Virus genome (UHGV): UHGV-0310400
Reading direction: 5' to 3' (one strand)
From: a virus
Length of the DNA stretch: 16,611 nucleotides
Shown here: in pieces, positions 1 to 12,509 of the stretch
How positions within the stretch are numbered: the first letter of the stretch is position 1
Layout of the letters: every line of letters starts with the position of its first letter
Notes under the pieces: generated by a model
The model's input: the letters and a program-made list of their open reading frames with translations, nothing else
Database searches by the model: none
What the model was told of the DNA's origin: nothing
Translations under genes and position numbers: made by a program

Positions 1-63
1 ACGGTTGATGAGGGCTTTATTGTAGGTGGGCCAGTTGGTGATTTTGAACTTTTGCTTTGCCAC
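1..63 (-). CDS. IS5-family (IS903-like) transposase, N-terminal fragment; partial, continues past the window start
   Basis: Minus-strand frame from a GTG at 63-61 translates as VAKQKFKITNWPTYNKALINR and stays open to position 1. This matches my recollection of the IS903 transposase N-terminus (..KQKFKITNW.TYNKALINRG..). Start codon choice is uncertain. Confidence 0.6.
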   Translation of the reverse strand, partial: MAKQKFKITNWPTYNKALINR

Positions 64-140
64 GGAACGGTCTGCGTTGTCGGGAAGATACGTGATCTGA
101 TCCTTCAACTCAGCAAAAGTTCGATTTATTCAACAAAGCC
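1..140 (-). mobile_element. Terminal segment of an IS903-group (IS5 family) insertion sequence; the element continues beyond the window start
   Basis: Minus-strand sequence reading inward from position 140 is GGCTTTGTTGAATAAATCGAACTTTTGCTGAGTTGAAGGATCAGATCACG..., which I recognise from memory as the IS903/Tn903 terminal inverted repeat and adjacent sequence, with a few substitutions. The outermost base of the inverted repeat is at 140. Not verified by alignment. Confidence 0.75.
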
Positions 141-1384
141 AAATCACCAGCAAATAATCCGTGATCAGTAATGCGAATATAAGCGACTTGCTGATTTGCT
201 GCTTTCGTTATACCACCATAAACGCGAAGGCTGCGACTCATTGGGCGATCCCACAACTCTGCAACCTGCAGTTTATTTCCTCTCACGGTCCGCGTCTCAA
301 TTACAGCAAAAAGGCGATTTCTGACAACCCCCATACTCATGCAGTGATAGTTAACTGTGGGATAGTTTTCATGTAAATCTGTAAGCCATTCCGGCGTTGT
401 CCAGGTCTTCCCGTCATCTCCTGAGCGAACCCATGCAACATGGAGGTTATTTACACCATGGCGGTCTCCAGCCATAAAAGGCGCATAGATGACATTGTCA
501 TATACAAACGTTTTATCCTGCGTCCAGGCGTTGTACCACGGTGTATCTGTAATTTTAAATAACTCTCCCTGGATAAAATCTTCAGAAGCATAAAAAAGAG
601 GCTGGCCCGGTATTCTCTCAAATAAAAAACGAGCATTTTTAAATCGACTGACATCCGGAAGAGTTGATACTTTAAAAGTAAGCCCTAATCCGTCAATTTT
701 ATAACCTGGAGATGAGGCTTCAAGGCACGCGCTTATTGCAGTGGAATCGTCATTTATACCATCACCAACAGCTCCAAAATCTTTGGGGCTAATAGCATCA
801 CGCATTTTATCCTGGAACGTTCGGTACACAGCCCCAGAACCATACTGAATAAACCAACCAAAACCACCAACAACTCCGGCGATTGCAGCATCGACATAAT
901 TACGCATTGAGCGATTATTTACAGCGTCCTGCTCAAATGATGGATCTGCAAGGTTAGAAATTTTGTTTTGCTTTGCATCGTAATATTTTGCAAGCAGAGA
1001 GGGCTTCATCAATGCACGTCTGAACCACCCAAAACATTGCTGGATCAGCATCGTCAGGTAGTCAAAGGCATCTTCATGCACTTCGGGGAAAAATTTTCCC
1101 TGATTGCGAAGGTCTGTGTCCTGCACTACATCAAGCACACGATCTATCGTAATTCGCCATCCAGTAGCAAGCGGAGACGGAAGAACCACAGAACCGCCAC
1201 TATAAGTGCCCGCCCCAGTTACCGTATAACCGGTATCCAGGACCAATTCTGTTACGTTCCCGTTCAGGTCAGACACCTGAACAACCAGGTCTGATTTTCT
1301 GAAAATTCGAAAAGTATACGGAAACGATGTCGTAACGCCGTTACCGGTGTATTCGTTGTGGTCAACTTCGGTTGAGACCGTCAT
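110..1384 (-). pseudogene. Tail fibre/tailspike gene (T7 gp17 position), 3' end truncated by IS insertion at 140/141; native sequence is 141-1384
   Basis: The 424-aa ORF has an N-terminal segment (EYTGNGVTTSFPYTF...VLDTGYTVTG...) resembling tail-attachment domains of podovirus fibres and tailspikes. It carries a DFGAVGDGINDDSTA motif (plus 758-781) typical of pectate-lyase-like beta-helix depolymerases, and an Asp-box-like SGDDGKTW (plus 401-424). The last 10 codons and the stop lie inside the IS inverted repeat (110-140). SD GGAG precedes the ATG at 1384. Confidence 0.6.
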
Positions 1385-1487
1385 GTTAAATCTCCAGATA
1401 GTCGCAGCACCCGTTGCGCCGCATATCTGGTTATTCTATTACCTGAAAAACCATATATGGATAAAAAGACTATAAATACCAATAGAT

Positions 1488-1504
1488 ATTACCTTTCGGG
1501 TAAT
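1488..1504. promoter_or_regulatory. 17-bp dyad operator-like site, copy 1 (ATTACC-TTTCG-GGTAAT)
   Basis: Perfect 6-bp inverted half-sites separated by 5 bp, in the divergent intergenic region between the tail fibre gene and the 85-aa gene. Same half-sites recur at 2608, 2701 and 3768. Confidence 0.5.
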
Positions 1505-1540
1505 TTGCAAAACGTGCTGGATAGCAAACAAATTATTTGT

Positions 1541-1560
1541 TACTGTATAAACATACAGTT
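1541..1560. promoter_or_regulatory. LexA (SOS) box
   Basis: TACTGTATAAACATACAGTT: CTGT (1543-1546), 8-nt AT-rich spacer, ACAG (1555-1558). Matches the enterobacterial LexA consensus TACTGT-N8-ACAGTA. Lies about 20 bp upstream of the SD/ATG of the 1580 gene. Confidence 0.7.
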
Positions 1561-1579
1561 ATTGCATGGAGAAGATAAG

Positions 1580-1837
1580 ATGCAGCAGTATCACTATCCA
1601 CTGGAAGACGGATTTACCGAAAGGATTCACACGCCGGGAGGCGTCAGGTCACTGGTGGAGGGATCGCACTTGATGAAATTACTCCGGGATCTCGATAAGG
1701 ATGGATTTAATGTCGATGGCCCACTTGCCGAACTGACTGCACTGATTAACTACGTCACCAGCTCACAGATGTCTATGCAGGATCTGCAAACACATCTCGA
1801 CTATTGTGCCGAACAATTACGAAAACAAACCCGGTAA
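1580..1837 (+). CDS. Small (85 aa) SOS-controlled antirepressor-like protein, paralogous to the C-terminal domain of the Bro-N antirepressor at 2986-3696
   Basis: ATG at 1580 is preceded by GGAGA (1568-1572). The track ORF from 1457 would run through the operator and LexA box, so the shorter start is preferred. Residues GVRSLVEGSHLMKLLRDLDKDGFNVDGPLAELTALINYV...DLQTHLDY align by eye with GVLGLTENSLLMNLLNQLQEDGHDVSGAAAELTTMFCYI...DIQTHAEY of the 2986 gene. Confidence 0.6.
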   Translation: MQQYHYPLEDGFTERIHTPGGVRSLVEGSHLMKLLRDLDKDGFNVDGPLAELTALINYVTSSQMSMQDLQTHLDYCAEQLRKQTR

Positions 1838-1844
1838 ATTTAAA

Positions 1845-1860
1845 GGCCGCAAGAGCGGCC
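1845..1860. terminator. Bidirectional intrinsic terminator hairpin between convergent genes
   Basis: GGCCGC-AAGA-GCGGCC perfect 6-bp GC stem, flanked by AAATTTAAA upstream and TATCGTTTCGCTTT downstream. Sits between the stop of the 1580-1837 plus gene and the stop of the 1860-2588 minus gene. Confidence 0.6.
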
Positions 1861-2588
1861 TATCGTTTCGCTTTGTGCTCGTCCCAGCACGTTTTGCACC
1901 ATGCCATTAAGCCGTCCGCATTTTGATTATTAGGGTAAAAGCTGGTCCGTTTTCTGCGGACATTACAAATTGGGCACCACTTCATATGGCGTGTATTCTT
2001 TGGGCCATCGAGGCACCTTGCACACCACTTAGTCAATCCATCTGGATTTTTTGACGATTTCCGGAATTTGTCATATGGAAGGTTTATTCTGCATCGCAAA
2101 CACTGCTTGCGGCCACTTGAAACTCTGTTAGCTGATTCTTCTTTTGGCGGCGATACAGAAGGTATTCTTGCTGGCTCTGATACTGCCTGAGGTGCTTTTT
2201 TAGATGACTGAGACGATATGTCATCACCAGGGAATCTTCCATGATATGCCGGACGCGTTGACACTCCAGGTGGAAGCTCAGCTGTAAACGGCTTTGGCTG
2301 AATCAGTTGCCTCTCTTTTGCTAACTCCTGCTGTTTATAATATGTCTGGATTACCGCACTATCATAAGCAGGAGGTACGGAAATATCAGGCGCGTTACCT
2401 CCAGTTTTTTGAAACTGAGTAGATGTGTGTTCTATCACCTGTGTACGACTAATCGTTACCTCCCCATCTTCGGTCTTTATCGTTTTGTTCTGATTAACGA
2501 CCGTACGATCAGAGATCTTAGTCTTGTTCTGGTTGATAACGTAAATAATCACCGCAACCACACCAACAACTATCCAGAAAACTTCCAT
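1860..2588 (-). CDS. Membrane-anchored protein with N-terminal TM helix, Pro/Ser-rich linker and C-terminal tandem Cys4 zinc-ribbon-like repeats; function unknown
   Basis: 242-aa ORF. N-terminus FWIVVGVVAVIIYVI is hydrophobic. C-terminus has two repeats, CLRC-x22-WCARC and CPIC-x23-WCKTC, each with DGL just before the second Cys pair. Stop codon abuts the terminator hairpin. Confidence 0.6.
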   Translation of the reverse strand: MEVFWIVVGVVAVIIYVINQNKTKISDRTVVNQNKTIKTEDGEVTISRTQVIEHTSTQFQKTGGNAPDISVPPAYDSAVIQTYYKQQELAKERQLIQPKPFTAELPPGVSTRPAYHGRFPGDDISSQSSKKAPQAVSEPARIPSVSPPKEESANRVSSGRKQCLRCRINLPYDKFRKSSKNPDGLTKWCARCLDGPKNTRHMKWCPICNVRRKRTSFYPNNQNADGLMAWCKTCWDEHKAKR

Positions 2589-2607
2589 TGCTTTTCCTCA
2601 CAATAAC

Positions 2608-2624
2608 ATTACCTTAAAGGTAAT
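2608..2624. promoter_or_regulatory. 17-bp dyad operator-like site, copy 2 (ATTACC-TTAAA-GGTAAT)
   Basis: Perfect palindrome about 20 bp upstream of the 242-aa gene start (2588, minus), in the divergent region shared with the antirepressor leader. Confidence 0.5.
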
Positions 2625-2700
2625 ATCTTGCTTTCAGGTGATCAAGCGTTAAACGCAATCAACCAAATACGGTTGATTTTAATATTTCTTCGCGTTTATC

Positions 2701-2717
2701 ATTACCTTTGCGGTAAA
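2701..2717. promoter_or_regulatory. 17-bp dyad operator-like site, copy 3 (ATTACC-TTTGC-GGTAAA)
   Basis: Same half-sites, one mismatch in the right half. Located at the start of the long leader upstream of the Bro-N antirepressor gene. Confidence 0.45.
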
Positions 2718-2751
2718 TTTACATCGCACTCCTCTTGTGCCATAGTAATCG

Positions 2752-2829
2752 GGCACTGGCAAAATCCAGTGCCGGGATTGGCGTCCCGGGTTACTAAGTG
2801 GCGCATACCACGCCAGACGTGGTTTTTTT
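2752..2829 (+). promoter_or_regulatory. Structured leader upstream of the antirepressor gene: overlapping hairpins ending in a terminator-like stem plus T7 tract; candidate attenuator or small RNA
   Basis: Hairpin GGCACTGG-caaaat-CCAGTGCC (2752-2773) overlaps hairpin CCGGGA-ttggcg-TCCCGG (2772-2789). Then CCACG-ccaga-CGTGG (2808-2822) is followed by TTTTTTT (2823-2829). An alternative pairing TGGCG (2798-2802) with CGCCA (2811-2815) competes with the terminator stem. Confidence 0.35.
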
Positions 2830-2985
2830 ATGCGTTAAGCACAGCTATATCCGAATTATGGTGGGCTGGGCAGGGGTCCGAAAGGACGCCGGTACCACTT
2901 AGGCCGGTACGCCAACCTTGTCCAGTTCACCACCAGTAATTGGCGTTGCGGTGGTGATTAAAATCACTAAGTGGAGATAACCACC

Positions 2986-3696
2986 ATGGCTAATGCTCAA
3001 ACTTCCATCTTCAAATTTGAATCTGTTAACCCTATCCGTTCCATCATTATCGATGGCCAACCATGGTTTGTAGCCCAAGACGTTTGTAGTGCGCTGCGTA
3101 TCCAAAACGTCACCCAAGCACTTGAAAAACTGGATGATGATGAAAGGTCTATGTTCAACATAGGGCATGAACATCGTGCAATTTTTGACAGCCGAGTAAA
3201 AGAGATCAACATCATCTCCGAGTCAGGCCTCTACACACTGATCCTCCGCTGCCGCGACGCAGTGACACCAGGCACTATCCCCTACCGCTTTCGTAAATGG
3301 GTTACAGGTGAGGTTCTTCCTCAGATCCGCCGCACCGGAAGCTACATTAAAAACTCGCTCCCGCAGGAAGAACGCATAAAGATGGTTGCCGACCAGGTAG
3401 CCAACGCCACGGCGTCAGCAGTAATGCAGGCGATGAAGATAGAGAACAAAACCTACAGCGCCCCACTGAAGCCCGGCTACCGTAGCCTGATTCATTCGCC
3501 GTCTGGTGTTCTCGGCCTGACGGAGAACTCACTGCTGATGAATTTGCTGAACCAGTTGCAGGAAGACGGGCACGATGTATCGGGCGCGGCGGCGGAGCTG
3601 ACAACCATGTTTTGCTACATCGTTGGTGTGAGTAAATGCCTGCGTGATATCCAGACTCACGCGGAGTACATCAACGACAAAGCAGGATTCTTCTGA
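2986..3696 (+). CDS. Phage antirepressor with N-terminal Bro-N domain
   Basis: ATG at 2986 is preceded by GGAGA (2973-2977); the track ORF from 2971 uses an upstream GTG. N-terminus IFKFESVNPIRSIIIDGQPWFVAQDVCSALRIQN matches the Bro-N signature (F.F....IR....DG.PWF.A.DV...LG). C-terminal approximately 70 aa are paralogous to the 1580-1837 product. Confidence 0.8.
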   Translation: MANAQTSIFKFESVNPIRSIIIDGQPWFVAQDVCSALRIQNVTQALEKLDDDERSMFNIGHEHRAIFDSRVKEINIISESGLYTLILRCRDAVTPGTIPYRFRKWVTGEVLPQIRRTGSYIKNSLPQEERIKMVADQVANATASAVMQAMKIENKTYSAPLKPGYRSLIHSPSGVLGLTENSLLMNLLNQLQEDGHDVSGAAAELTTMFCYIVGVSKCLRDIQTHAEYINDKAGFF

Positions 3697-3704
3697 CGGG
3701 CGGC

Positions 3705-3730
3705 GGCACAGGGATGTGCCTTTAAATAAT
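3705..3730 (+). terminator. Intrinsic terminator downstream of the antirepressor gene
   Basis: GGCACA-ggga-TGTGCC stem-loop (3705-3720) followed by TTTAAATAATT. Confidence 0.45.
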
Positions 3731-3740
3731 TCTGTACAGA

Positions 3741-3769
3741 TTGCAGACCGGGGGTGAATAGCGTACTAT
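3741..3769 (+). promoter_or_regulatory. Sigma70-like promoter for the 3810-5411 operon
   Basis: TTGCAG (3741-3746), 17-bp spacer, TACTAT (3764-3769). The -10 element overlaps operator copy 4. Confidence 0.45.
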
Positions 3770-3784
3770 TACCTTAAAGGTAAA
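3768..3784. promoter_or_regulatory. 17-bp dyad operator-like site, copy 4 (ATTACC-TTAAA-GGTAAA)
   Basis: Identical to copy 2 over 16 of 17 bp. Overlaps the -10 and predicted transcription start of the cargo operon promoter. A second small inverted repeat CATGT-gttt-ACATG (3786-3799) follows. Confidence 0.5.
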
Positions 3785-3809
3785 CCATGTGTTTACATGA
3801 GGAGGAGAT

Positions 3810-4019
3810 ATGGGATTTTGGTTCGCTCGTACAAAAACGAGGGATAATGCACCCAGCCCTCAGGCAAAAAATACAGAAGTTCCGGCGTCAGCGCAGGTTA
3901 ACAAGCGTGGTGGTGTGTATATCTCATCACAGCAAATTTCTGAGCTTCCTGAGGTTAAGGAGATGCGTCGTCTCGCTGCTGCAATCGTTAAACAGGATCT
4001 TGCCACTGTAAGGAAATAG
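3810..4019 (+). CDS. Small (69 aa) hypothetical protein, first gene of the cargo operon
   Basis: Strong SD AGGAGG (3800-3805) 4 nt before the ATG at 3810. Stop TAG overlaps the GTG start of the next gene (TAGTG). Preferred over the alternative-frame ORF 3787-4011, which lacks an RBS. Confidence 0.5.
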   Translation: MGFWFARTKTRDNAPSPQAKNTEVPASAQVNKRGGVYISSQQISELPEVKEMRRLAAAIVKQDLATVRK

Positions 4020-4882
4020 TGTTGTTAGCTCTTCTAATTATCCCCATTCTGGTTAGTGGTTATATTATGATAACCGCTAACCAGTATCATTATTTCCGTT
4101 TATACCGACATGAAGGCCAGCTTCTTTATATGAAAGTAGCTGCATTAGGTACATATTGCCTTGTTGCTTCTGTAATAATTGCCGCATTTATAAAATATAA
4201 ATATCCTGATTTTCACCTAGTTCACGATATGGTGGAAACTTTTAATGTAACGTCAAAACCAGAAACAGATAGAATTTACATGTGGCTACTTCTTCTGTCA
4301 GTCACATCAATTTGCTTCTCTTTGTGTTATGTATCTTTTGTTTGGCTAAAAGATCTTCTTTTAGGTTGTTTTTATAAACGTGATATTTATGACAAAATAT
4401 CAGAGGCAATGAAAGCTAGGGTATTGCGAAAAACGTACTCCCAGGGTTCTTTAGATTTGCTATTGCTTGATGCAATCGAATCAGATCCTAAGAAACCAAT
4501 GTTAATTACTTTATCATCAAATAAAGTATACGTTGGAATAATAAATGGTTCTGGTGAGCCAACGGAAAATCAAGGGCCACACCAACACATATCTTTTGTT
4601 CCTTTAATGTCAGGGTACAGAAACAAAGAAAATTTATCTGTTACATTTACAAACGCTTACCCAGGTGAAATCCAAATTAAGCGCAGTGCTGCGATAAAAG
4701 GGATAAGCAAAAAGAAAGTTCAAGGTCTAGAAATTATGGTATCTATAGACGAAATAAGTCATATATCATGGTTTGACTTTGAAGTATATAAGGCAACAAA
4801 TAACAAAGTAGAAACAAAGGGTCATGTTGTTAATGTGACCAAAAATGGTCGCAACATATACTACAGAAGTGGCAGGAAATAA
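4019..4882 (+). CDS. Multi-pass membrane protein (about 3 TM helices) with a soluble C-terminal domain of roughly 170 aa; AT-rich cargo gene of unknown function
   Basis: 287-aa ORF. Hydrophobic segments LLALLIIPILVSGYIMI, MKVAALGTYCLVASVIIAAFI and YMWLLLLSVTSICFSLCYVSFVWL. Base composition is visibly more AT-rich than the flanking virion genes. GTG start is coupled to the upstream stop; an internal ATG at 4067 is an alternative. Confidence 0.65.
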   Translation: MLLALLIIPILVSGYIMITANQYHYFRLYRHEGQLLYMKVAALGTYCLVASVIIAAFIKYKYPDFHLVHDMVETFNVTSKPETDRIYMWLLLLSVTSICFSLCYVSFVWLKDLLLGCFYKRDIYDKISEAMKARVLRKTYSQGSLDLLLLDAIESDPKKPMLITLSSNKVYVGIINGSGEPTENQGPHQHISFVPLMSGYRNKENLSVTFTNAYPGEIQIKRSAAIKGISKKKVQGLEIMVSIDEISHISWFDFEVYKATNNKVETKGHVVNVTKNGRNIYYRSGRK

Positions 4883-4907
4883 ATTTTACGCAGTTTAGGT
4901 GGCTTAT

Positions 4908-5411
4908 ATGGATAATACTATCTTAGGCGCATTGATAGGTGCTGTTATTGCTATAGTTTCCACTTATATAAATGCAGGACAAGGATACAAAAACAGCATA
5001 AGATTAGAGCGACAAAAAATATTAAGGGATAAACGCGAGCAATTATTTATAAATTGTATACTTACTAAAAAAGTCATAGATTCAAGCACAATTACCATTC
5101 TCAATTTCGTAAAAAATGCCAGATACCACTCTGATAGTAAATTTGACGTATCAAGAGCGAATCCGTTGCAAACGATGGAAATGCTAATAAACATATACCT
5201 TCCTGAGTATAAAAAAGACTTACAAGAACTCAATAATGCGTATCAAGAATTTCACAAATACTACTCTCAATATACATGTGCACATACCTTCAAAAATATG
5301 CCTGATAATGAGAAGTCGAGGTTTATTGAGGAGGCTGATTTTTATGCAAAAAAGATATATGGCAAACTTAATGATATTAAGGACAAGATATCATTAAACT
5401 CAATAGTATAA
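4908..5411 (+). CDS. Single-pass membrane protein (N-terminal TM helix plus soluble domain of about 140 aa); AT-rich cargo gene of unknown function
   Basis: ATG at 4908 with SD AGGTGG (4897-4902); the track ORF starts at an upstream GTG at 4899. N-terminus NTILGALIGAVIAIVSTYI is hydrophobic. Very AT-rich. Followed by a GC-rich palindrome and the terminator at 5496-5513. Confidence 0.6.
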   Translation: MDNTILGALIGAVIAIVSTYINAGQGYKNSIRLERQKILRDKREQLFINCILTKKVIDSSTITILNFVKNARYHSDSKFDVSRANPLQTMEMLINIYLPEYKKDLQELNNAYQEFHKYYSQYTCAHTFKNMPDNEKSRFIEEADFYAKKIYGKLNDIKDKISLNSIV

Positions 5412-5462
5412 CAGCGATACTGCCGCTGACGGCTCCCGCTGCGGTGGGCGTTCTGCGGATTC

Positions 5463-5474
5463 CCGCCCGGGCGG
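5463..5474. repeat. Perfect 12-bp GC palindrome CCGCCCGGGCGG inside a short GC-rich intergenic segment
   Basis: The segment from about 5415 to 5485 is strongly GC-rich between two AT-rich genes and contains this palindrome plus flanking CCGCTG/CAGCGG repeats. Confidence 0.4.
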
Positions 5475-5495
5475 CGGTGGCATTCGTTAAAAACA

Positions 5496-5513
5496 AGGCC
5501 GCGAAAGCGGCCT
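5496..5513. terminator. Bidirectional intrinsic terminator between convergent cargo genes
   Basis: AGGCCGC-gaaa-GCGGCCT 7-bp stem. On the minus strand it is followed by TTGTTTTT, on the plus strand by TGTTTGAT. Lies directly after the stop of the 5520-6371 gene. Confidence 0.6.
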
Positions 5514-5519
5514 GTTTGA

Positions 5520-6371
5520 TCACTGTGCAGTTTTCGCTGATCGATTTTCAGCTCTAAATTCAAGAACCGTTTCAATATTTCTTTCCTTCAGCATATCAAT
5601 AACATTTTTATTCATTTGACTATCACTGGTTAATAACTGGTAAACGTCGCTTCTCTCTTTATCAGAGTTTTCTTTAACAGCTGCTTTGCATGCCAAATGC
5701 TTATTGAAATTTTCTACATCGCTAGTACAGGAATTTACGGCTGCTGATGAAATATCAGACGCTGAAGAAACACCATCATCCAAACGTTTTATAGCATTTT
5801 CTATACATGAGTTAAGGGAATAAACGACAACTGAGCGATACCCTTCAGACGCACACCATTCTAAATTTCTTGAAGGATCGAGTGGTTTTACTTCGCTGGA
5901 TTGAATTAACTTGTCAAAAACTGACTTATATTCAATCTGTTTTTTATCTATAGCCCATACTTCAGTAGCTGATTTATAATTCCCCGTATGCCTATTAACA
6001 TCAAATCCATGTTTTATAAGCAAATCTGCCCATGAAAGATTTATTGATTCATTGTTATGAGGCCATTTTCCTGTCAGAACCGCCCCCATAGACCCCATAT
6101 ATCCGCCATATGATGGTATAGCACCATGGCTCAGTAACTTCTCAGCAACCACAGGGCAATTAATTACATAAGAGGCGTAAAGCCCATTCCATAAAGCCCC
6201 TCTATAGTAATCGCCACGATTAGGTTCTTTTAAGTCGATAGCCTTTGATAATTGTTCACACGTTTTGCATGCATCAAAGTTATCCTTATTGCATTGCAAT
6301 GAACTGGCAGCTGTAGGATTTACAGAGACTATTGAAAGCACTATGCCAAAAAACAAATTTATTTTTTTCAT
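5520..6371 (-). CDS. Secreted/periplasmic protein with cleavable signal peptide; AT-rich moron coupled to the last virion gene; function unknown
   Basis: 283-aa ORF. N-terminus MKKINLFFGIVLSIVSVNPTAASS is a classical Sec signal peptide. Multiple cysteines in the mature part. Start lies 2 nt from the stop of the 1129-aa gene. AT-rich relative to the virion genes. Confidence 0.65.
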   Translation of the reverse strand: MKKINLFFGIVLSIVSVNPTAASSLQCNKDNFDACKTCEQLSKAIDLKEPNRGDYYRGALWNGLYASYVINCPVVAEKLLSHGAIPSYGGYMGSMGAVLTGKWPHNNESINLSWADLLIKHGFDVNRHTGNYKSATEVWAIDKKQIEYKSVFDKLIQSSEVKPLDPSRNLEWCASEGYRSVVVYSLNSCIENAIKRLDDGVSSASDISSAAVNSCTSDVENFNKHLACKAAVKENSDKERSDVYQLLTSDSQMNKNVIDMLKERNIETVLEFRAENRSAKTAQ

Positions 6372-6372
6372 C

Positions 6373-9300
6373 CTATTTCATCTGCTCTTCAACTTTATTT
6401 AGTAATGGTGATATCGCCCACAGGTTCTGAAAAGGTAGCATTTTACGGACCGCGTGGGTTTGCTGGCTGTCAAATTCTCCGTTAAGTACACCATTCGCAA
6501 CCGTCGCGGCATCACCGCCAAGATCAAAGGTAGGACCAAGTAAAGCACCAATAGCATTACGACTCTGAAACCTTGATACCGGAGGCGCACCAAACATCGC
6601 GCCAAGACCAAACCTACCACCGCTTATGTTCTCAACGGTATTCAGCGGCTCAGAGAGCCAGCCAAGCATTCCGCCCCGGTCGATCCCCTCTTTCACAAGG
6701 TTATTCCAGCTGTAGTCAATATCGCGACCGCTTAACTTCTGTTTCATCATATAGACCATTGAGCCAAGCGCAATCGTGCCAAGCGCACCAAGATAGAATG
6801 CAGCATCGCCCTGCTGGATACCAGATACCAGCACCCTGTTATGCTGTGCGAAGATAAACGTTTTGAACTGCGTGATCATCTTCCAGCCTTCTTTACTAAA
6901 AAACAGCGGTGTATCACCTACGCCAGGCGTTACAATCACTGAGTCTACATCTTTCAGCACTGCAGACTGGAAAATCTCTCTAGCGAAACGGTCATCCCAC
7001 AGATGACTATGCCCGGTTAACAGCCCGTCCATATCCTCTCCGTGCTTCCCGAATTGCTCCCCGATTCGACGCAGAACATCTTCATTGATGCCGACCTGTG
7101 CCATCTTCCGCATTTCACTTTTGGAGAGCGTGCCACCAGCAGAAACTTGGCGAGCCGCGTCAAGTATCCTCGACTGCACTATCATCCCAGACCATGATTT
7201 AAGTGCGCTGTTCCACTGATTCATCAGCGTCCAGTTACCGAATTTCTGCGTCATCCAGTTCAGACCTCGCTCAGCGGCGCTTCTCCGGCTATAGGGGTCA
7301 GTAAGATCCGCTATAGCCTTTGTACGCGTAGACAGGACATAATCAAGCCCAACGGCCATTTCTCGCAAATCCCTGGTTGCAATTTTCACTGAGTCCATAT
7401 TTTTAAGCATGCTTACCATTGGTCCGAGAGATTTTCTCAGGCCATGCTGCATCATCGGTCGCATCAGATCAGTTGCAGCGGAGACAGTCATTCCACCAAG
7501 CAAACGGAGGAAGTTAATATTCCTAGCAACTCGCCCGGCACGAACAAAGAAACTGCGTGGATCTTGAGGTGCACCGTAAGTACCAAGCAGTCGATCACGC
7601 ATAGCCGTAATATCCCTAATATCAGCCTCCCGTTGCTTCTCAAGAACTGCACGTCGTTTAGGTGTTTTAGCCTCTTTTATTAGCCGGGTATATTCCTCAC
7701 TAACCTGACGGATTTGCTCCCCCATATCTTTACGGCCAAACTGCGCAGTCAGCTCAATTTCTGGTGCCACCTGCCGGAGATAACTTTCCATGATGTAGTT
7801 AACATCTGATTCAAGAAAATCTTCTATACGCTCATCAGGAATAAGCAGCGTTCTGCTTTTAGTGAAACCAGCCCGACCAACGAGTCTCTCTGGGATAATA
7901 TCGGCTGGTACAAGCCCGGAAGGTGCGCCTATTATTTTATTCACGATCTCGTCAGCAGCGTCCTCTGCTTCCTCTCGGGATAGAGGCTCCATCTGCTTCA
8001 GTGCTCGTTCGCGGCTTGCATTCAGCCTTGTGGTTGAATTTGCCCGTTTTTGCAGTCGGCGAAGCTCAGAACGATATTTCCGTGGATTATCCAGCAACTC
8101 CATATGGCGCTGATAGACAGGAAGCTCACTCTTTGCCTGCGCTATATCATCAAGGCGTGTTTTAAGGTCAGAGCTTTCTTTCATCATTCTTGCCTGAAGT
8201 TTTTCTGATGAAGTCTCGGCCAACTCTTTTTCTATTCTTGTAAGACGCGCCTGTGTGTCAGTCTCCTGAGATATAAGCTTATTTCGTTTATCCAGTTCTT
8301 CCATGAGTAGAATTTTTTTACCAGACCATTTCTCCGCTTCAGCGATTTCACTAGCGAGAGCATCAGCGCGCGGTGCCGATTCCTCTGCAGTTTTTAGCAA
8401 TGAATTTATCCTTTCAATTCGCTGACCTGCCTTGTCAGCACCTTTGGCACTAATCCCTTGTATCCAGTTGGCAATTCGCCCTCTGAATTCAGTGCGGTCG
8501 GAAAGTATCTTATCGAACTTATAAATGCGGGGAAGATAACTTTTCGCCGTCACGACATCGATATCCTCAGGAAGGATCCCCAGTTCCTGCATACGGGCTT
8601 TTGTGATCTCGAAAATGGGGCGGATTCTGGCGGCTGCTTGTGAAACCTCAGGAATATCACTCTGATCACCACGGCGCATGGCCATGCCAACAGCTTCATT
8701 GAAATCAATAAAGTTCATCCTCTTCACGCCGCGGGCGCTAACAGATTTGCTGTACTGCTGATAAGCATCACTAGTGGCTTCCATCTGCTTATAAAGCATG
8801 GCGTCGTATTGCTTAATCTTAGTCTCGACTGCCGTAAACGTAGCCAACCCCTCATCATTTTTGGCGAAGAAATAGTTATTTTCGGCAAGCTGCTGGTTAA
8901 TCTGACGGGAGACAAGAGATGGTGATTGCGCCAAGCGGCCAGCAGGAGTGACACTCAACGTTTTGTTAGCAAGTCCAAGTCCAGCGAGCTGTTCCTGATC
9001 GAGTGTGGTATTGAAAACCTGAGCTGCACCAATGCTTTGAGGAGAATCCATACCTCGCAAATGATTACCTACTGAGTTAACCACTGCCTCGCGCGCGCTA
9101 GGTCCAGCAAGTAGCTGTGCACCAGCACCAAGGATCCCACCAACGAGAGCATCAACAACAACGTTCGATACGCTCTCCATCGGTGAGCGAGCTTCCTGAG
9201 TGGCCTGTAATGCGGCTTCTGATACTCCCCCACCAGCAGCATTCGCCAGGGCAAAACGCCCTGCCGTCTCAGCAATACTTCCTCCACGCGCTACCGCCCC

Positions 9301-9762
9301 TACAGGGATGAACATTGCAGCCACATTAACCGGGTCTATCATTCCCATTGCTAAGCTTGAAATAGTACCAGCACCACCCATTTCAGATAGATATTCTCTA
9401 TCTGTTCTTTGCTTATCGATTCGATGTTTAATTGCCATTGTTTCTTCATGCGAACCGGAGTTGATAAACGAATCTGCAAAATCTTCATAGCCTTTAATAT
9501 CTGCTGCATCGTTATCAAATGGGTTATATCCTTCAACCCTGTCAAACTGACTGAAAGGAGCACTGGCAATAAAGCTACCCAGCGTGTTATCTATACGAAA
9601 TGCTGCTTGTCTAGACCTTTGAACGCGTTGATCACTGGTAAATGGGTTCACAGCAGAAAGCAAAGAAGGTGTTTCCATATAGAAATTACTGTCATCAGGT
9701 GCTGCTATTTGCTGAATATCCTCGCCAAGCAACTCTTTAGGATCCTGTTCATATATCGGCAT
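6373..9762 (-). CDS. Large internal virion/ejection protein (T7 gp16 position)
   Basis: 1129-aa ORF. Gly/Ala-rich hydrophobic N-terminal region (GGAGTISSLAMGMIDPVNVAAMFIPVGAVARGG...) and a central coiled-coil-like charged region (..EKELAETSSEKLQARMMKESSDLKTRLDDIAQAK..). Assigned by position and size in the gp11-to-gp16 series; no direct homology recognised. Confidence 0.55.
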   Translation of the reverse strand: MPIYEQDPKELLGEDIQQIAAPDDSNFYMETPSLLSAVNPFTSDQRVQRSRQAAFRIDNTLGSFIASAPFSQFDRVEGYNPFDNDAADIKGYEDFADSFINSGSHEETMAIKHRIDKQRTDREYLSEMGGAGTISSLAMGMIDPVNVAAMFIPVGAVARGGSIAETAGRFALANAAGGGVSEAALQATQEARSPMESVSNVVVDALVGGILGAGAQLLAGPSAREAVVNSVGNHLRGMDSPQSIGAAQVFNTTLDQEQLAGLGLANKTLSVTPAGRLAQSPSLVSRQINQQLAENNYFFAKNDEGLATFTAVETKIKQYDAMLYKQMEATSDAYQQYSKSVSARGVKRMNFIDFNEAVGMAMRRGDQSDIPEVSQAAARIRPIFEITKARMQELGILPEDIDVVTAKSYLPRIYKFDKILSDRTEFRGRIANWIQGISAKGADKAGQRIERINSLLKTAEESAPRADALASEIAEAEKWSGKKILLMEELDKRNKLISQETDTQARLTRIEKELAETSSEKLQARMMKESSDLKTRLDDIAQAKSELPVYQRHMELLDNPRKYRSELRRLQKRANSTTRLNASRERALKQMEPLSREEAEDAADEIVNKIIGAPSGLVPADIIPERLVGRAGFTKSRTLLIPDERIEDFLESDVNYIMESYLRQVAPEIELTAQFGRKDMGEQIRQVSEEYTRLIKEAKTPKRRAVLEKQREADIRDITAMRDRLLGTYGAPQDPRSFFVRAGRVARNINFLRLLGGMTVSAATDLMRPMMQHGLRKSLGPMVSMLKNMDSVKIATRDLREMAVGLDYVLSTRTKAIADLTDPYSRRSAAERGLNWMTQKFGNWTLMNQWNSALKSWSGMIVQSRILDAARQVSAGGTLSKSEMRKMAQVGINEDVLRRIGEQFGKHGEDMDGLLTGHSHLWDDRFAREIFQSAVLKDVDSVIVTPGVGDTPLFFSKEGWKMITQFKTFIFAQHNRVLVSGIQQGDAAFYLGALGTIALGSMVYMMKQKLSGRDIDYSWNNLVKEGIDRGGMLGWLSEPLNTVENISGGRFGLGAMFGAPPVSRFQSRNAIGALLGPTFDLGGDAATVANGVLNGEFDSQQTHAVRKMLPFQNLWAISPLLNKVEEQMK

Positions 9763-12509
9763 TATTTGCCCCCTGCGTATATATTGCTCGGAAGGTAATT
9801 GGCTGAACCATAACCGAATGGTTTGGTCAGATCTGGAGGAGTATATCCATCTTTATTGCTGAACTGCGGCAGCGGATTGCCTTCTCTCCGCACTCTAGCC
9901 TCATCAACACGCTGTTGCTGGAACTGAATGGTTTGCCTGTACATTGGAGATGTCAGCTGATCCGGCTTGAAACGAACAGGGAGACCATTTTCTCCAATAT
10001 AATTTCTCGGTTCTATCGCTCCGTTTGCGTCAGGCTGTAAAACCATAACAGCATAACTCCTATCCCTTGCCGTAAGGCCATCAGAAACAAGTATTAAGTC
10101 CGTATCACTGCGAGGACCGCCAAAGGATTTTGATTTAAGCTCGCGTTTTTCCTGCTCCCACTGCCCCTGTATCCAGTTACCAGCACCATTATTTACTCCG
10201 TACAATGCCTCAGGTGCATACTTCATAACCTCTGCTTTGCCATTAACCGTAGAAACTCCCCAAGTGGTTCTGATCATGGCATTGGTCATTTTCTCAGCCT
10301 GTTCTGCATCGCCACCTGTCTGTACAAAGTTAGCATCGTAAATTGTCTGGTAATCTCGCTGATAGGCCGCATTTGATTTTCCTGGATCGGTAATATCCGG
10401 AGACCACGAACCAAAGGAAGTCAGACTGCTGGCGTTATTTTGTGCAGCAGTTGCCCTCGCCGCGACATATTTTTTGTCTCGCATGGCAGTGGAAAGCATC
10501 TGTTTCATTCGGTCATCCTGTTGGAACACCTGGCTGTAAGCCATATCAACAGCCTTATCCTCCGGCACGCCAGCGCGGGAATAATCGTAAACCTTGCCGT
10601 AAAATGCCATCGTACTTTTATCAAGTGTTGCCGCTGCCGCCGGATTATTATCGAATAACTGACCGTAGAATTTTGCCATCGGGACAACCAGCGCAGGATC
10701 TCTTGATGTTGCTCCACTGTTAAGCATTGTTTTAACCTGAGTTGGTATCATGCCGCTTTTAGTTGTGACGGTGACCAGTGTATTGATGCTCTGCGGATCA
10801 GATATGGAAAACGAAGGCGCGATATCCTGCGCGAAATAACGGTCTACCGCTGCCTGATTGTTTTTGTCGTTCGGGTCCAGCGGGAAGTTATTTTGCATTG
10901 AAGACACGAACCTGTTTCTTCCCTGCTGAATCTCCCACTCCCTATCCATCTCTTTAAATTTGGCCTGCATTTTCTCCCAGCGTTGCTGGTTAGCTGCAAA
11001 TCCAGGAGCGTTTGGATCCTGTGGACGTAAACGTTCAAGAATGTCTTGTCGTCCTTCTGGAGTGAGGTCTTTAGCGGCACCAATGACACCTCCATATTGT
11101 ATCTGCGCCTGCATATCCTTCCACTTCATAGCGCCAATGCGCGGACCATTGGCCCGGATAAAATCGTCCTCAGAAGGTAACTGCTCAGGTTTCAATCCTT
11201 CATCAAGGGCTGAATATGCATCTTTAACTACGGTGCTAAGCTGGTCCGCATACTGCTGGCGGTACTGATTTCTCAGCTCATTAGCCTGCCTCAATGCCTG
11301 TATTTGCATTTGAGGGCTCATAGCATCAAATGCCGCATTGCCCGTATAACGCTTAGGTGAATCAAGGTTAGTTAGACCAAGGGCTGCCGAGATACCAGTT
11401 TCAAGCTGTTCGGTGCTATAAGGCATACTGCCATTTTCGTGTTTAATAATCCCAGCACATAAAGCAGCTAGTGTCTTTGGGTTAGAGATATCAAGCTGAT
11501 CATTCTCCCCAACACCAAGCTCACCACACAATGCCCTAATATAAGCATCAGTATTATTACCATCACTAGCCGGAGCATAACGATTAACAATCTCGCTAAC
11601 GGTGTCATAGCCTTGACGCTGGTAAGACAACATATTTTTACCCAACGCGCGGATTCCATGCTCAGGGGTAGCAAACGTTGCAAAACGTCCATCGCTACCG
11701 ATCTGACCTTCCCACGGGTTAGATTTGCTCGCTTCAATATTACCAGGATTATTATTACGTAAACCACGAGCATCCAATGAATTACCATGTGACATTGCAC
11801 GGCTCACACCGTCAAGATCCCCTGGCTCTCCATTAACCTGAAGAAACTCGTTGTATTTTTGAGCGATATTTCCTATCCATGCTTGCTGCCCCATTTGTTC
11901 CTTGAGCTGAGTTTTCTGCTGAACACGCCACTCATCAGGAAGCCCATGCGCATCAGCGTATTGATCAATAGATTCAAATCGCTGCTTGGCTAAATCGACA
12001 AATGCTTGGTTATCGCTATATAGCCCCGCAGACTGAGTGACAGCCAATGCATTTCCTGACAAATACGTTTGATCTTGGAATTGCTGAAACTGCCCAACTT
12101 CATATCGACGTGCCTGATTGTAATAAGACTGCATAGACTGCTGGAGTTGAAAGGATAATTTATTCCTTTCCTCACTTTCAGGAATTGAGCCTAATAATGC
12201 CTGAGCCCTTTCCTGCATATTTTTCATAACAGCGTCACTCTGACCAAGAGCGTTTTTACCCTGTTTAGAAATCAGCCCATTTTCTGGGTTGTTAATCTGG
12301 TCATCTGCAAATTGGTTAAATTGCAGTAACGCCTCCTGGGCCATAGCAACATTCGCTTTCTGCCTGGCTTCACCATATGCCACCGCATACTGATCTGCGA
12401 CATTCGCCAGCACCTGACCTGCTTGAGGAACATCGAAGGTTTGAAAACCACCGGTTTGCACACCACGACTTTGCACCTGGCGTCCGGATGTAGTAGGAAC
12501 AACAGGCAT
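9762..12509 (-). CDS. Internal virion/ejection protein (T7 gp15 position) with a conserved motif block that may be a cell-wall-active domain
   Basis: 915-aa ORF, start overlapping the upstream stop. Residues about 245-330 (plus 11520-11777) contain RGLRNNNPGNIEASKSNPWEGQ...GRFATFATPEHGIRA, which looks like a conserved enzymatic motif; the family is not identified with certainty. Confidence 0.55.
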   Translation of the reverse strand: MPVVPTTSGRQVQSRGVQTGGFQTFDVPQAGQVLANVADQYAVAYGEARQKANVAMAQEALLQFNQFADDQINNPENGLISKQGKNALGQSDAVMKNMQERAQALLGSIPESEERNKLSFQLQQSMQSYYNQARRYEVGQFQQFQDQTYLSGNALAVTQSAGLYSDNQAFVDLAKQRFESIDQYADAHGLPDEWRVQQKTQLKEQMGQQAWIGNIAQKYNEFLQVNGEPGDLDGVSRAMSHGNSLDARGLRNNNPGNIEASKSNPWEGQIGSDGRFATFATPEHGIRALGKNMLSYQRQGYDTVSEIVNRYAPASDGNNTDAYIRALCGELGVGENDQLDISNPKTLAALCAGIIKHENGSMPYSTEQLETGISAALGLTNLDSPKRYTGNAAFDAMSPQMQIQALRQANELRNQYRQQYADQLSTVVKDAYSALDEGLKPEQLPSEDDFIRANGPRIGAMKWKDMQAQIQYGGVIGAAKDLTPEGRQDILERLRPQDPNAPGFAANQQRWEKMQAKFKEMDREWEIQQGRNRFVSSMQNNFPLDPNDKNNQAAVDRYFAQDIAPSFSISDPQSINTLVTVTTKSGMIPTQVKTMLNSGATSRDPALVVPMAKFYGQLFDNNPAAAATLDKSTMAFYGKVYDYSRAGVPEDKAVDMAYSQVFQQDDRMKQMLSTAMRDKKYVAARATAAQNNASSLTSFGSWSPDITDPGKSNAAYQRDYQTIYDANFVQTGGDAEQAEKMTNAMIRTTWGVSTVNGKAEVMKYAPEALYGVNNGAGNWIQGQWEQEKRELKSKSFGGPRSDTDLILVSDGLTARDRSYAVMVLQPDANGAIEPRNYIGENGLPVRFKPDQLTSPMYRQTIQFQQQRVDEARVRREGNPLPQFSNKDGYTPPDLTKPFGYGSANYLPSNIYAGGK

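Follow-up and report, generated by a model that had tools for sequence, protein, structure and literature searches.

The DNA analysed here, hereafter referred to as the window, is a stretch of 16,611 nucleotides from the UHGV virus genome UHGV-0310400. Gene calling and profile searches revealed seven protein genes in mixed orientation within positions 1385-6372, between a tailspike gene and the gene for the last large internal virion (ejection) protein (Table 1). The original prediction of six or more genes in mixed orientations was borne out, and two RNAs that it had not seen, isrK and C4, were additionally found.

Table 1. Features of the region and its flanks (window coordinates; empty cells, no entry)
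Feature	Position	Strand	Basis or remark
IS903B (IS5 family) end	1-140		terminal inverted repeat cgatttattcaacaaagcc at 122-140
K1-type endosialidase tailspike gene, 5' part (about 415 codons)	141-1384	-	Pfam; left flank, ends at 1384
Candidate -10 hexamer TAGAAT, tailspike promoter	1433-1438	-	inference from conservation
Rep operator-like palindrome ATTACCTTTCGGGTAAT	1488-1504		in spacer
Putative LexA (SOS) box TACTGTATAAACATACAGT	1541-1559		20 nt upstream of ant start codon
ant, 85 aa	1580-1837	+	SPC32H-type antirepressor
Hairpin terminator	1844-1861		between convergent ant and 242-aa genes
242-aa gene	1860-2588	-	slot A cargo
Rep operator-like palindrome	2608-2624		just upstream of 242-aa gene
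Rep operator-like palindrome	2701-2717		abuts isrK promoter
isrK promoter, -35 TTTACA	2718-2723	+	promoter scan
isrK promoter, TG-extended -10 CATAGT	2741-2746	+	promoter scan
isrK RNA	2753-2829	+	Rfam match
isrK a1 TTGGCGT	2778-2784	+	hairpin-2 loop
isrK b1 CTAAGTGG	2794-2801	+	single-stranded linker
isrK intrinsic terminator	2807-2829	+	
C4 RNA	2854-2937	+	Rfam match
C4 b' CCACTTAG	2895-2902	+	hairpin loop
C4 a' ACGCCAA	2909-2915	+	unpaired junction
ant2 leader	2940-2985	+	holds C4 targets a2 and b2
a2 TTGGCGT	2940-2946	+	
b2 CTAAGTGG	2967-2974	+	overlaps Shine-Dalgarno GGAG (2973-2976)
Bro-N protein gene (ant2), 236 aa	2986-3696	+	
Rep operator-like palindrome	3768-3784		upstream of cargo cassette
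69-aa gene	3810-4019	+	slot B cargo
287-aa gene	4019-4882	+	slot B cargo
170-aa gene	4899-5411	+	slot B cargo
Hairpin terminator	5496-5513		between convergent 170-aa and 283-aa genes
283-aa gene	5520-6371	-	slot C cargo
Last large internal virion (ejection) protein gene, 1129 aa	6373-9762	-	phrog_342; right border

The 1129-aa protein at the right border matches phrog_342, described as 'internal virion protein with endolysin domain' (E 2e-234). The neighbour on the left had been taken for a whole fibre gene, and what is present is the first part of an endosialidase tailspike, in which an epsilon15 gp20-like N-terminal domain is followed by endosialidase domains (Pfam End_N_terminal, 1.5e-32; End_beta_propel, 5.6e-71, covering only profile positions 1-112 of 367). 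This fragment is 98-99% identical to the tailspike of the IHE3034 prophage, whose gene is intact (1039 aa). The mechanical open reading frame extends to position 110; homology to intact prophages begins at position 141, and positions 1-145 share 99.3% identity with more than 5000 plasmid records annotated as 'IS5-like element IS903B family transposase'. IS903B has cut and destroyed the tailspike gene in this copy, at about residue 415.

Over aligned stretches, the window is 96-98% identical to EC.W1-9, phiV10, TL-2011b and related E. coli phages, and about 75% identical to epsilon15; annotated relatives carry an antirepressor region at the same position. The original prediction had described an island splitting the canonical gp16-gp17 junction of a T7-type module, which does not hold. 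The phage is epsilon15-like, and in each of the nine loci tabulated (eight relatives plus the window) a stretch separates the last ejection gene from the tailspike gene, the smallest being that of epsilon15 (0.7 kb) and the largest that of TL-2011b (5.9 kb). A foreign island of 5 kb, inserted as a unit into a T7-type module that once had the fibre gene immediately behind the ejection gene, might account for the AT-rich right half (GC 0.36 vs 0.49 for structural genes), for gene content that varies between close relatives, and for the finding that coverage of window positions 1-6500 stays below 80% in every complete E. coli genome of the collection. However, the variation arises from swaps of cassettes at three distinct slots, each between conserved flanks: the difference from the closest complete genome is confined to the replacement of 3814-5410 (junctions at 3813 and 5411), and other relatives also vary at the 242-aa and 283-aa slots. 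Neither an integrase or transposase gene within the region nor flanking direct repeats bounding it were found, and P22, an unrelated podophage, has its immI at an analogous position. The comparison with related prophages suggested earlier as a check showed variable genes in the cargo and not in the part with ant, the LexA box and the operator, which is kept in all seven relatives aligned and evidently represents a conserved core rather than an insertion. A single foreign insertion is thus very improbable, and in its unit-insertion form this explanation is already contradicted.

The conserved core includes a 195-bp spacer (1385-1579), also kept in 7/7 relatives, that holds a repressor operator and, read on the strand of the tailspike gene, an unchanging TAGAAT. 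The hexamer sits within an 11-nt block, ATTCTATTACC, that is identical in all seven, including epsilon15 and Tyrion; a consensus scan of the tailspike strand of the spacer found no sigma-70-like site. The tailspike gene may be read from its own promoter in this spacer, and the separate promoter postulated earlier is plausible in view of the conserved spacer, the invariant hexamer and the operator.

On the other side of the spacer, the single SOS box that had been placed before the divergent gene next to the tailspike corresponds to a perfect predicted LexA box upstream of ant. It is the sole exact LexA-box match in the window (0 found in 200 shuffles) and occurs at the same place in epsilon15, phiV10, TL-2011b, Tyrion, EC.W1-9 and IHE3034. 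The 85-aa Ant is a homologue of epsilon15 gp19, matches phrog_450 and, over residues 2-84, PDB 5d50 chain E ('Anti-repressor protein', E 4.1e-47), and is 84-100% identical across all Uetakevirus relatives examined. A LexA-controlled Ant is given as a published mechanism in a passage of PMC7380047 that cites Kim & Ryu 2013, and the tetramer of the repressor Rep is broken up by tetrameric Ant (PMC9638917). By analogy with the experimentally shown SPC32H homologue, LexA on its box would keep Ant silent, and DNA damage would remove LexA and allow Ant to be made and to bind Rep; since Ant would then take the DNA-binding tetramer apart, the prophage would be induced.

Four ATTACC-N5-GGTAA palindromes were detected, each of them intergenic and beside a gene start (TTACC-N5-GGTAA, 4 in the window vs 0.06 expected). 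The motif is that of the sites annotated as 'protein_bind repressor' in the epsilon15 record, three of which adjoin rep, and it also flanks rep in EC.W1-9 and phiV10; the operator assignment is based on this GenBank annotation and on genomic distribution, the rep gene lying outside the window. The palindrome at 1488-1504 is kept in relatives, with one base of one arm changed in phiV10 and TL-2011b, and a site equivalent to 3768-3784 stands upstream of different cargo in EC.W1-9 and TL-2011b. Because the palindromes adjoin all four gene starts, this arrangement suggests that Rep may damp the promoters of the region in the lysogen.

One of these palindromes adjoins the putative isrK promoter, and the Rfam isrK match starts 7 nt beyond the end of the promoter's -10. 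In 5/6 relatives the operator abuts the -35; phiV10 has an operator but a different -35 region. Both RNAs score well above their gathering thresholds (isrK, RF01394, 67.7 bits vs 50; C4, RF01695, 66 bits vs 45), the leader at 2753-3000 folds with z = -4.97, and each of the six relatives with a Bro-N gene carries the pair upstream of it; the pair was not found in epsilon15. The C4 elements a' and b' occupy unpaired positions of the consensus structure. All 58 unique sequences, which represent three a types, show full complementarity of a' to both a1 and a2. The pairing of b' with b1 and b2 extends over at least 7-10 nt and is seen in at least seven b types, while non-cognate pairs average 5.9 and 4.3 nt; in most of these sequences b2 lies 7-11 nt before the ATG. 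C4 thus pairs with its targets and covaries with them.

The gene behind this leader codes for a protein with an N-terminal Bro-N domain (Pfam, 1e-19), matches to phrog_130 and phrog_450, and a C-terminal domain homologous to the small SPC32H-type Ant (PDB 5d50_E, E 1.3e-13, residues 160-236 of a 241-aa ORF); in TL-2011b, the corresponding C-terminal DNA, with 94.6% identity, is joined to the N-terminal part of a P22-type Ant. We therefore designate it as a predicted second antirepressor. It could instead be proposed that the isrK and C4 matches reflect inert remnants and that the Bro-N protein serves in DNA binding or host takeover, particularly as the function of the Bro-N domain is not settled (PMC9782041). 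Such remnants would not covary perfectly with their targets over so many types, and the high Rfam scores as well as the homology of the C-terminal domain to a crystallised antirepressor also argue against this possibility. Furthermore, overexpressing 'ORF4', a Bro-N protein of the related phage ZX5, reduced the prophage titre from 10^9 to 10^6 PFU/mL (about a thousand-fold) and repressor transcription by 75% (PMC9782041), and we regard the inert-remnant explanation as extremely unlikely.

In the proposed RNA-gated input, the promoter at 2718-2746 would drive an IsrK-like RNA, most of which would end at its own terminator, and read-through transcripts would carry the C4 antisense RNA together with ant2, whose product would join a Bro-N domain to a Rep-binding domain of the kind present in the small Ant. 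Pairing of a' and b' with a2 and b2 in the leader would be expected to block ant2 translation, as for P1 c4, because b2 covers the Shine-Dalgarno sequence, and the IsrK-like RNA could compete for C4 and relieve the block since a1 and b1 are copies identical to a2 and b2. As the a and b sequences differ and reassort between phages, a resident C4 would probably silence only an incoming phage of the same type.

All three hairpin terminators of the original prediction were located, as strong G+C-rich hairpins followed by T-runs (1844-1861, 2807-2823 and 5496-5513); positions 1-6800 contain 17 terminator-like sites vs 5.8 +/- 2.2 in shuffles. The stem at 1844-1861 has seven pairs, 6 of them G-C, with a T-rich tail on the minus strand, and this terminator probably works in both directions. 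The same may apply to the one at 5496-5513, which sits inside a short backbone remnant (5412-5519, GC 0.66); 5411-5515 is common to the window, TL-2011b, EC.W1-9, IHE3034 and CUVET20. The composition check agreed with an AT-rich right part, with a GC of 0.36 for 4019-6371 vs 0.467 for 1385-4018 and 0.488 for structural genes. The 287-aa, 170-aa and 283-aa genes have values of 0.34, 0.32 and 0.37, and AT-richness does not extend to the 69-aa gene on the left edge of the cargo (0.476).

The cargo occupies three exchangeable slots, containing the 242-aa protein, the 69+287+170-aa cassette and the 283-aa protein, respectively. The 242-aa protein (phrog_6762, E 1.4e-148) combines an N-terminal membrane helix with two C-terminal Cys4 zinc-ribbon-like motifs and has weak matches to the zinc-binding part of endonuclease VII and Lar-like families. 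Its gene is present in CUVET20 and a Providencia prophage, is represented in TL-2011b only by a misc_feature 'similar to hypothetical protein', is replaced by a YafO toxin pair in IHE3034, and was not found in epsilon15, phiV10 or Tyrion in a presence/absence comparison. The slot B cassette also occurs in other prophages and in other slots. The 170-aa protein has an apparent hydrophobic N-terminus, and the 283-aa protein, whose gene begins 1 nt past the stop of the 1129-aa gene, an apparent N-terminal signal peptide.

The AT-rich cargo (69+287+170 aa, perhaps also 283 aa) could itself be the functional core, serving SieA-like superinfection exclusion or abortive infection, with expression from the prophage to shield the lysogen and with the regulatory genes as mere neighbours. 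Its position matches that of sieA in P22, its proteins appear to be membrane-anchored or secreted, the 69+287 pair moves as a cassette between prophage accessory slots, including one beside a Citrobacter prophage integrase, and the 287-aa protein joins about 4 membrane helices to a small C-terminal Sm/Hfq-like (Sm/WYL-like) beta-barrel. Comparison with P22 SieA showed no resemblance in any cargo protein, and repression by Rep at the cargo promoter (3768-3784), if real, would keep these genes off in lysogens, which fits poorly with a classical moron or exclusion role. We consider it rather unlikely that the cargo is the core. Because its proteins appear to be membrane-anchored or secreted, it might tentatively be assigned to envelope-level exclusion, another form of lysogenic conversion or an early-lytic accessory role.

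The regulatory-plus-cargo character attributed to the region was recovered in the form of antirepressors, operators, RNAs and cargo genes. The region is real and orderly, yet of a type already known for epsilon15-like E. coli phages. We estimate a probability of roughly 0.8 that 1385-6372 represents an immunity and accessory region typical of its lineage, that of the epsilon15-like (Uetakevirus) temperate podophages, and combines a two-input switch for Rep inactivation with exchangeable cargo.

The ant part closely parallels the system of the epsilon15-like phage SPC32H (Rep, small Ant and LexA; Kim & Ryu 2013, Kim et al. 2016, PDB 5D50). The 85-aa Ant is homologous (E 4e-47), the putative LexA box lies directly upstream, the gene adjoins the tailspike gene as epsilon15 gp19 does, and the repressor sites have the sequence of those annotated in epsilon15; for this part there is no detectable difference, with the rep gene lying outside the window. 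In P22, the gene order is 7-20-16 / sieA / mnt-arc-sar-ant / 9, so that immI lies between the ejection-protein genes and the tailspike, as the region does here, and it likewise includes an accessory gene and an antirepressor controlled by both RNA and protein. The match to immI and sieA drawn earlier applies to position and to the presence of antirepressors, but not to the individual genes, as no arc, mnt, sar RNA, P22-type Ant or SieA homologue was found in the window; the relative TL-2011b carries arc-sar-ant in addition.

The Salmonella prophage Gifsy-1 has an isrK-orf45-anrP locus, in which IsrK switches on antirepressor translation in trans by opening the mRNA structure around an upstream ORF, and the read-through transcript is processed to STnc1160, which has stretches complementary to IsrK (Hershko-Shalev et al. 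2016, PMC4825925). Both loci have an IsrK with a leaky terminator upstream of an antirepressor gene on one transcript. In the window, however, IsrK has an explicit C4-family RNA as its partner for pairing, and the IsrK mechanism may differ because the translational-coupling ORF of Gifsy-1 is not conserved (14 codons in the window, 3-37 in relatives). In APSE phages of Hamiltonella, isrK-family and c4-family RNAs reportedly lie next to a Bro-N gene, with c4 a'/b' matching the region upstream of it, as in the window; these phages belong to a different lineage, and the SOS-controlled small Ant is absent from the APSE description (PMC7313666).

As in the immI of P1/P7 (c4-icd-ant), the window has a C4-family RNA in which a' and b' are unpaired, the same target pair on both sides of C4 (a1/b1 before it, a2/b2 after it), a downstream target that covers the ribosome-binding site, an antirepressor as the controlled gene, and specificity types that vary between related phages. 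The P1 immI layout with a1/b1 and a2/b2 was reportedly described by Citron and Schuster in 1990. A main-repressor operator at the promoter is also shared (PMC8201110, PMC7313666), and Ant of P1 is under the control of C1, C4 RNA and Icd (PMC8201110). In contrast to P1/P7, the window lacks an icd-like ORF between C4 and ant2, such that C4 would hit the ribosome-binding site of ant2 directly, its a1/b1 pair is located in a separate, terminated IsrK-like small RNA, and its antirepressor is a Bro-N fusion. Judged from its sequence, the immunity module is of the P1 (C4 RNA) type rather than the P22 type.

Over aligned stretches, the window is 96-98% identical to the E. coli phages EC.W1-9, TL-2011b, phiV10, and phiv142-3 and approximately 75% identical to Salmonella phage epsilon15, all of which are temperate podophages of the genus Uetakevirus. 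The original prediction had described positions 1385-6372 as an island of about 5 kb that splits a canonical T7-type junction between the large ejection-protein gene and the fibre gene. This frame had to be given up, since the phage lineage is not of the T7 type, the regulatory half of the region is ancestral to the genus, and an inserted mobile island was rejected: the region contains no integrase or transposase genes, is not bounded by flanking repeats, and varies slot by slot rather than as a unit. What had been read directly from the sequence was borne out, including the genes in mixed orientations (seven protein genes between 1385 and 6372), three strong hairpin terminators (1844-1861, 2807-2823, and 5496-5513), an SOS box (a single perfect LexA box), and the AT-rich character of 4019-6371 (GC content 0.36, versus 0.467 in 1385-4018 and 0.488 in the structural genes). 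The comparison of related prophages that it had proposed for finding variable genes was run on nine loci, and the variation sits in three exchangeable slots. The fitting annotation is therefore not a foreign island but an antirepressor and accessory region within an epsilon15-like prophage. No tRNA was found in a scan of the window.

Features of the antirepressor and accessory region and its surroundings (positions in the window unless a phage is named)
Feature	Position	Strand	Remarks
IS903B (IS5 family) end	1-140		terminal inverted repeat 122-140
Tailspike ORF	110-1384	-	epsilon15 gp20-like N-terminus, then endosialidase domains
Operator-like palindrome	1488		ant-tailspike spacer
ant	1580-1837	+	85-aa SPC32H-type antirepressor
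Slot A gene	1860-2588	-	242 aa
Operator-like palindrome	2608		ahead of 242-aa gene
Operator-like palindrome	2701		abuts IsrK promoter
IsrK RNA	2753-2829		Rfam RF01394, 67.7 bits vs threshold 50
a1	2778-2784		IsrK-like RNA, loop
b1	2794-2801		IsrK-like RNA, linker
C4 antisense RNA	2854-2937		Rfam RF01695, 66 bits vs gathering score 45, full length
b' (CCACTTAG)	2895-2902		C4 hairpin loop, unpaired in Rfam consensus structure
a' (ACGCCAA)	2909-2915		C4, unpaired in Rfam consensus structure
a2	2940-2946		Bro-N gene leader
b2	2967-2974		Bro-N gene leader, overlaps Shine-Dalgarno GGAG
ant2	2986-3696	+	Bro-N antirepressor
Operator-like palindrome	3768		ahead of slot B cargo cassette
Slot B cassette	3810-5411	+	69+287+170 aa
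Slot C gene	5520-6371	-	283 aa
Tail-tube and internal virion (ejection) protein genes	16492 down to 6373	-	last = 1129-aa protein, phrog_342
62-bp palindrome pairs, EC.W1-9 (L006)	1815/1877, 39326/39388		
62-bp palindrome pairs, phiV10 (L007)	31953/32015, 35070/35132		

The product of ant matched the 'Anti-repressor protein' of Salmonella phage SPC32H (PDB 5D50 chain E, residues 2-84) with an E-value of 4.1e-47; it is a homologue of epsilon15 gp19 and is 84-100% identical in each Uetakevirus relative examined. A LexA box (TACTGTATAAACATACAGT, 1541-1559) lies 20 nt upstream of the ant ATG and is the sole perfect copy in the window, whereas the chance expectation is 0 (none in 200 shuffles). In 7/7 relatives aligned, including epsilon15 and Tyrion, the box is retained along with the ribosome-binding site and most of the 195 bp that separate ant from the tailspike gene. 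In the epsilon15-like phage SPC32H, LexA cleavage leads to production of the small Ant, as summarized in PMC7380047 (citing Kim & Ryu 2013), and PMC9638917 describes an Ant tetramer that binds two repressor dimers and thereby breaks the DNA-binding tetramer. Judged by sequence, the 85-aa 'hypothetical protein' adjoining the tailspike is an SOS-controlled antirepressor, and conservation places the ant/LexA-box part in the core of the lineage rather than among inserted genes. The gene for the main prophage repressor (Rep) is located beyond the window; relatives carry one, such as the 'putative repressor' of EC.W1-9 and epsilon15 gp38, which is annotated with the HHpred match 5d50_A.

Four copies of an ATTACC-N5-GGTAA palindrome are present in the window (0.06 expected), all of them intergenic and within the region. 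The epsilon15 record annotates the same motif as a repressor binding site, with three copies adjoining a repressor gene that is annotated as similar to the SPC32H repressor, and in EC.W1-9 and phiV10 the palindrome flanks the repressor gene. We infer that Rep would act on promoters at the four operator-like sites. The site at the promoter of slot B speaks against the cargo being simply constitutively expressed in the lysogen. Outside the region, such palindromes are often paired exactly 62 bp apart, a spacing that would fit a repressor tetramer on two sites.

The untranslated stretch 2589-2985 should be annotated as containing two regulatory RNAs, IsrK and C4, both of which lie directly 5' of the Bro-N gene. 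The IsrK terminator is located at 2807-2829, with the Bro-N gene start 157 nt further downstream. A sigma-70-like promoter (TTTACA-17-CATAGT, with a TG) ends 7 nt ahead of the first base of the IsrK match; the sigma-70 scan returned 15 sites versus 15.3 in shuffled sequence, and only the site landing exactly at the isrK 5' end was used. The IsrK/C4 pair was detected in 6/6 relatives that have the Bro-N gene, and epsilon15 has neither the two RNAs nor the gene; in phiV10, a Bro-N antirepressor is annotated at the same position. The C-terminal domain of the Bro-N protein matches SPC32H Ant (E 1.3e-13), and the two antirepressors probably have the same type of repressor as their target. TL-2011b additionally carries a P22-type arc-sar-ant set, in which the DNA of the Ant C-terminal module (L003 5086-5342) is 94.6% identical to window positions 3463-3719. 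The Bro-N protein and the P22-type Ant of TL-2011b therefore share one repressor-binding module on unrelated N-terminal domains.

Exact complements of the C4 elements a' and b' are present twice, in the IsrK-like RNA (a1/b1) and in the leader of ant2 (a2/b2). Covariation was analyzed in 58 distinct versions of the module from IMG/VR contigs and relatives, with pairing elements extracted from each sequence by anchors. Column-wise counts on a MAFFT alignment (A1) were abandoned because indels push the short variable elements out of register, and whole-RNA duplex folding of C4 against its neighbours without internal structure was uninformative. The a' element is perfectly complementary to a1 and a2 in 58/58 sequences, across three a types, and the b' loop pairs with b1 and b2 over at least 7-10 nt despite at least seven b types, whereas pairing in non-cognate combinations averages 5.9 and 4.3 nt. 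The a and b types, natural non-cognate examples of which include CTAAAAGG and TTGGTCT, combine differently among the 58 sequences, and b2 is located 7-11 nt ahead of the start codon in most of them. C4 thus has paired and covarying partners on both sides, and a C4-dependent block of ant2 translation would be the regulatory outcome. Since a1 and b1 are on a separately terminated RNA, the IsrK-like RNA could titrate C4.

Two IMG/VR contigs (L028 and L058) have a different geometry, in which the partner of the b' loop is TCACTATG, the start-codon region, instead of the Shine-Dalgarno region, and the usual b2 position is occupied by unrelated sequence; this may represent a recombinant or an alternative way of targeting. 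In the window, the ant2 leader (2939-2997) is predicted to form a local hairpin in which GCGGUGGUG is base-paired to the ACCACCAUG start region, and the start codon may therefore be masked in cis too.

Among the nine loci (the window and eight relatives), the region ranges from 0.7 to 5.9 kb. Slot A, between ant and the IsrK promoter, encodes a protein that combines a membrane helix and a pair of Cys4 motifs in the window, contains a YafO toxin pair in IHE3034, and is empty in epsilon15. Slot B, 3' of the Bro-N gene, holds the 69+287+170-aa cassette. Compared with the closest complete genome, CUVET20-PYO2, the replacement covers exactly 3814-5410, and both flanks are 99-100% identical. The same trio occupies slot B of other E. 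coli prophages with different tailspikes. A Providencia prophage has the 69+287 pair in its slot A, and a Citrobacter prophage has it next to the integrase. The 283-aa protein of slot C is apparently secreted, and its gene starts one base past the stop of the 1129-aa gene. No named family was assigned to the slot A-C proteins, whose Pfam and NCBIfam matches are all well below curated cut-offs; PADLOC returned 0 families for six region proteins at E <= 0.01, and likeness to P22 SieA is absent (BLASTP E 1.4 for the 287-aa and 3.2 for the 170-aa protein). The predicted model of the 287-aa protein (pLDDT 71) combines approximately four membrane helices with a small Sm/Hfq-like barrel, and that of the 283-aa protein has only weak ankyrin-like similarity. 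It is likely that the cargo proteins act at the cell envelope, and any function proposed for them is a guess. A hairpin at 4049-4084 was rejected as a terminator, as it lies inside the 287-aa coding sequence.

Amid these AT-rich genes, a short GC-rich (0.66) stretch at 5412-5519 is a backbone remnant at the right-hand junction of the cargo replacement; its counterpart in relatives is the 3' end of a 53-aa gene ('putative transmembrane anchored protein' in TL-2011b) together with the terminator. The adjacent ejection-protein module (6373-12509, minus strand) is mosaic too, with two large genes (915 and 1129 aa) versus three in epsilon15, phiV10, and Tyrion. In tblastn, none of these three phages gave a match to the 1129-aa protein, which is 56% identical to a Providencia prophage protein.

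On the other side of the region, homology to intact prophages starts at position 141. Only part of the endosialidase domains is encoded (Pfam profile positions 1-112 of 367 for the propeller and 1-34 of 83 for the barrel), and the complete tailspike architecture of N-terminal extension, beta-propeller, beta-barrel, stalk, and C-terminal chaperone is not present in the window. Considering these partial domains, the IS903B end, and the intact 1039-aa homologue in E. coli K1 strain IHE3034, the 'fibre' is a tailspike specific for the K1 capsule, and its gene is interrupted near codon 415. The second IS903B end and the target duplication are located beyond the window. The prophage copy in the window therefore probably cannot make functional tailspikes; intact K1 endosialidase tailspikes are encoded by prophages of extraintestinal E. 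coli of the K1 type, among them IHE3034 and APEC O18. The K1-capsule endosialidase is carried on an epsilon15-type N-terminal adaptor, and in close relatives the same N-terminus bears quite different receptor-binding domains.

A separate promoter for this gene in 1385-1579 had been proposed. Such a promoter in the ant-tailspike spacer is likely, because the structural operon stops at the 5496-5513 terminator and most genes in between face the opposite way; in addition, a TAGAAT on the tailspike strand (1438-1433) is invariant in the relatives aligned, although a consensus scan of the spacer returned no full sigma-70 site for the tailspike. In phages that have the 242-aa gene, tailspike transcripts might alternatively arise by read-through from it.

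Taken together, we tentatively propose, with a joint probability of roughly 30%, that the region is a two-input induction hub and that, separately, the 69+287(+170)-aa cassette is a module, not described before, for exclusion at the envelope or for abortive infection, based on a membrane-anchored Sm-like barrel. In the hub, two antirepressors would share one common Rep-binding domain, LexA gating one and a two-RNA titration switch the other, in which the terminated IsrK-like RNA, through its a1 and b1 copies, would act as a decoy that captures C4. The two-part a/b 'address', with at least 3 types of a and 7 of b, reassorts between phages and would determine a second immunity specificity at the RNA level that does not depend on Rep. 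As both antirepressors have the same repressor-binding domain, DNA damage and a distinct RNA-gated pathway could each trigger induction, and the same two triggers would apply to cross-talk with co-resident or incoming relatives. The covariation of C4 and IsrK offers natural specificity variants that are ready for tests of RNA-level immunity, and the cargo slots are places to seek new exclusion or conversion genes. In the literature searched, we did not find statements of the shared repressor-binding domain of the two antirepressors, of the a/b elements as a reassorting two-part code, or of IsrK carrying decoy copies. None of these findings overturns current understanding.

Several known systems resemble parts of the region. 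The analogy with P22 immI drawn in the original prediction is good with respect to position, as P22 has sieA, mnt, arc, sar, and ant between ejection gene 16 and tailspike gene 9, and the region is likewise placed between ejection genes and tailspike. However, unlike P22 immI, it is without the ribbon-helix-helix repressors arc/mnt, sar RNA, and P22-type Ant: Arc/Mnt had no Pfam match among ten ORFs scanned, sar had no Rfam match, and the region proteins had no tblastn match to the P22 region. In P1 and P7, according to PMC8201110 and PMC7313666, the ribosome-binding site that precedes ant is blocked by c4, an antisense RNA. Their immI also has a C4-family RNA with unpaired a'/b' and with targets at the ribosome-binding site and in a second upstream copy, but the icd-like ORF between c4 and ant has no conserved counterpart in the window. 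An icd/orf45 equivalent in C4 was rejected, the sole ATG-initiated frame having 14 codons here and 3-37 in relatives. In the isrK-orf45-anrP locus of Gifsy-1, IsrK turns on antirepressor translation in trans (PMC4825925); this locus too has an IsrK RNA and an intrinsic terminator 5' of the antirepressor gene, and its inactive 'structure A' resembles the predicted ant2 leader hairpin, whereas the orf45-type coupling ORF is not seen in the window. A Bro-N protein has been tested by overexpression in ZX5 (PMC9782041), and APSE phages already have a described isrK, c4, and Bro-N arrangement. The LexA/Ant system of SPC32H agrees with the window in both its small Ant (approximately 86 aa) and the LexA box at the ant promoter region. 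Each component is thus already known from SPC32H (LexA/Ant), P1/P7 (C4), Gifsy-1 (IsrK), or APSE (isrK, c4, and Bro-N). Among the complete E. coli genomes in the collection, none reaches 80% coverage of window positions 1-6500, and what is specific to the window is its particular mosaic of these components.
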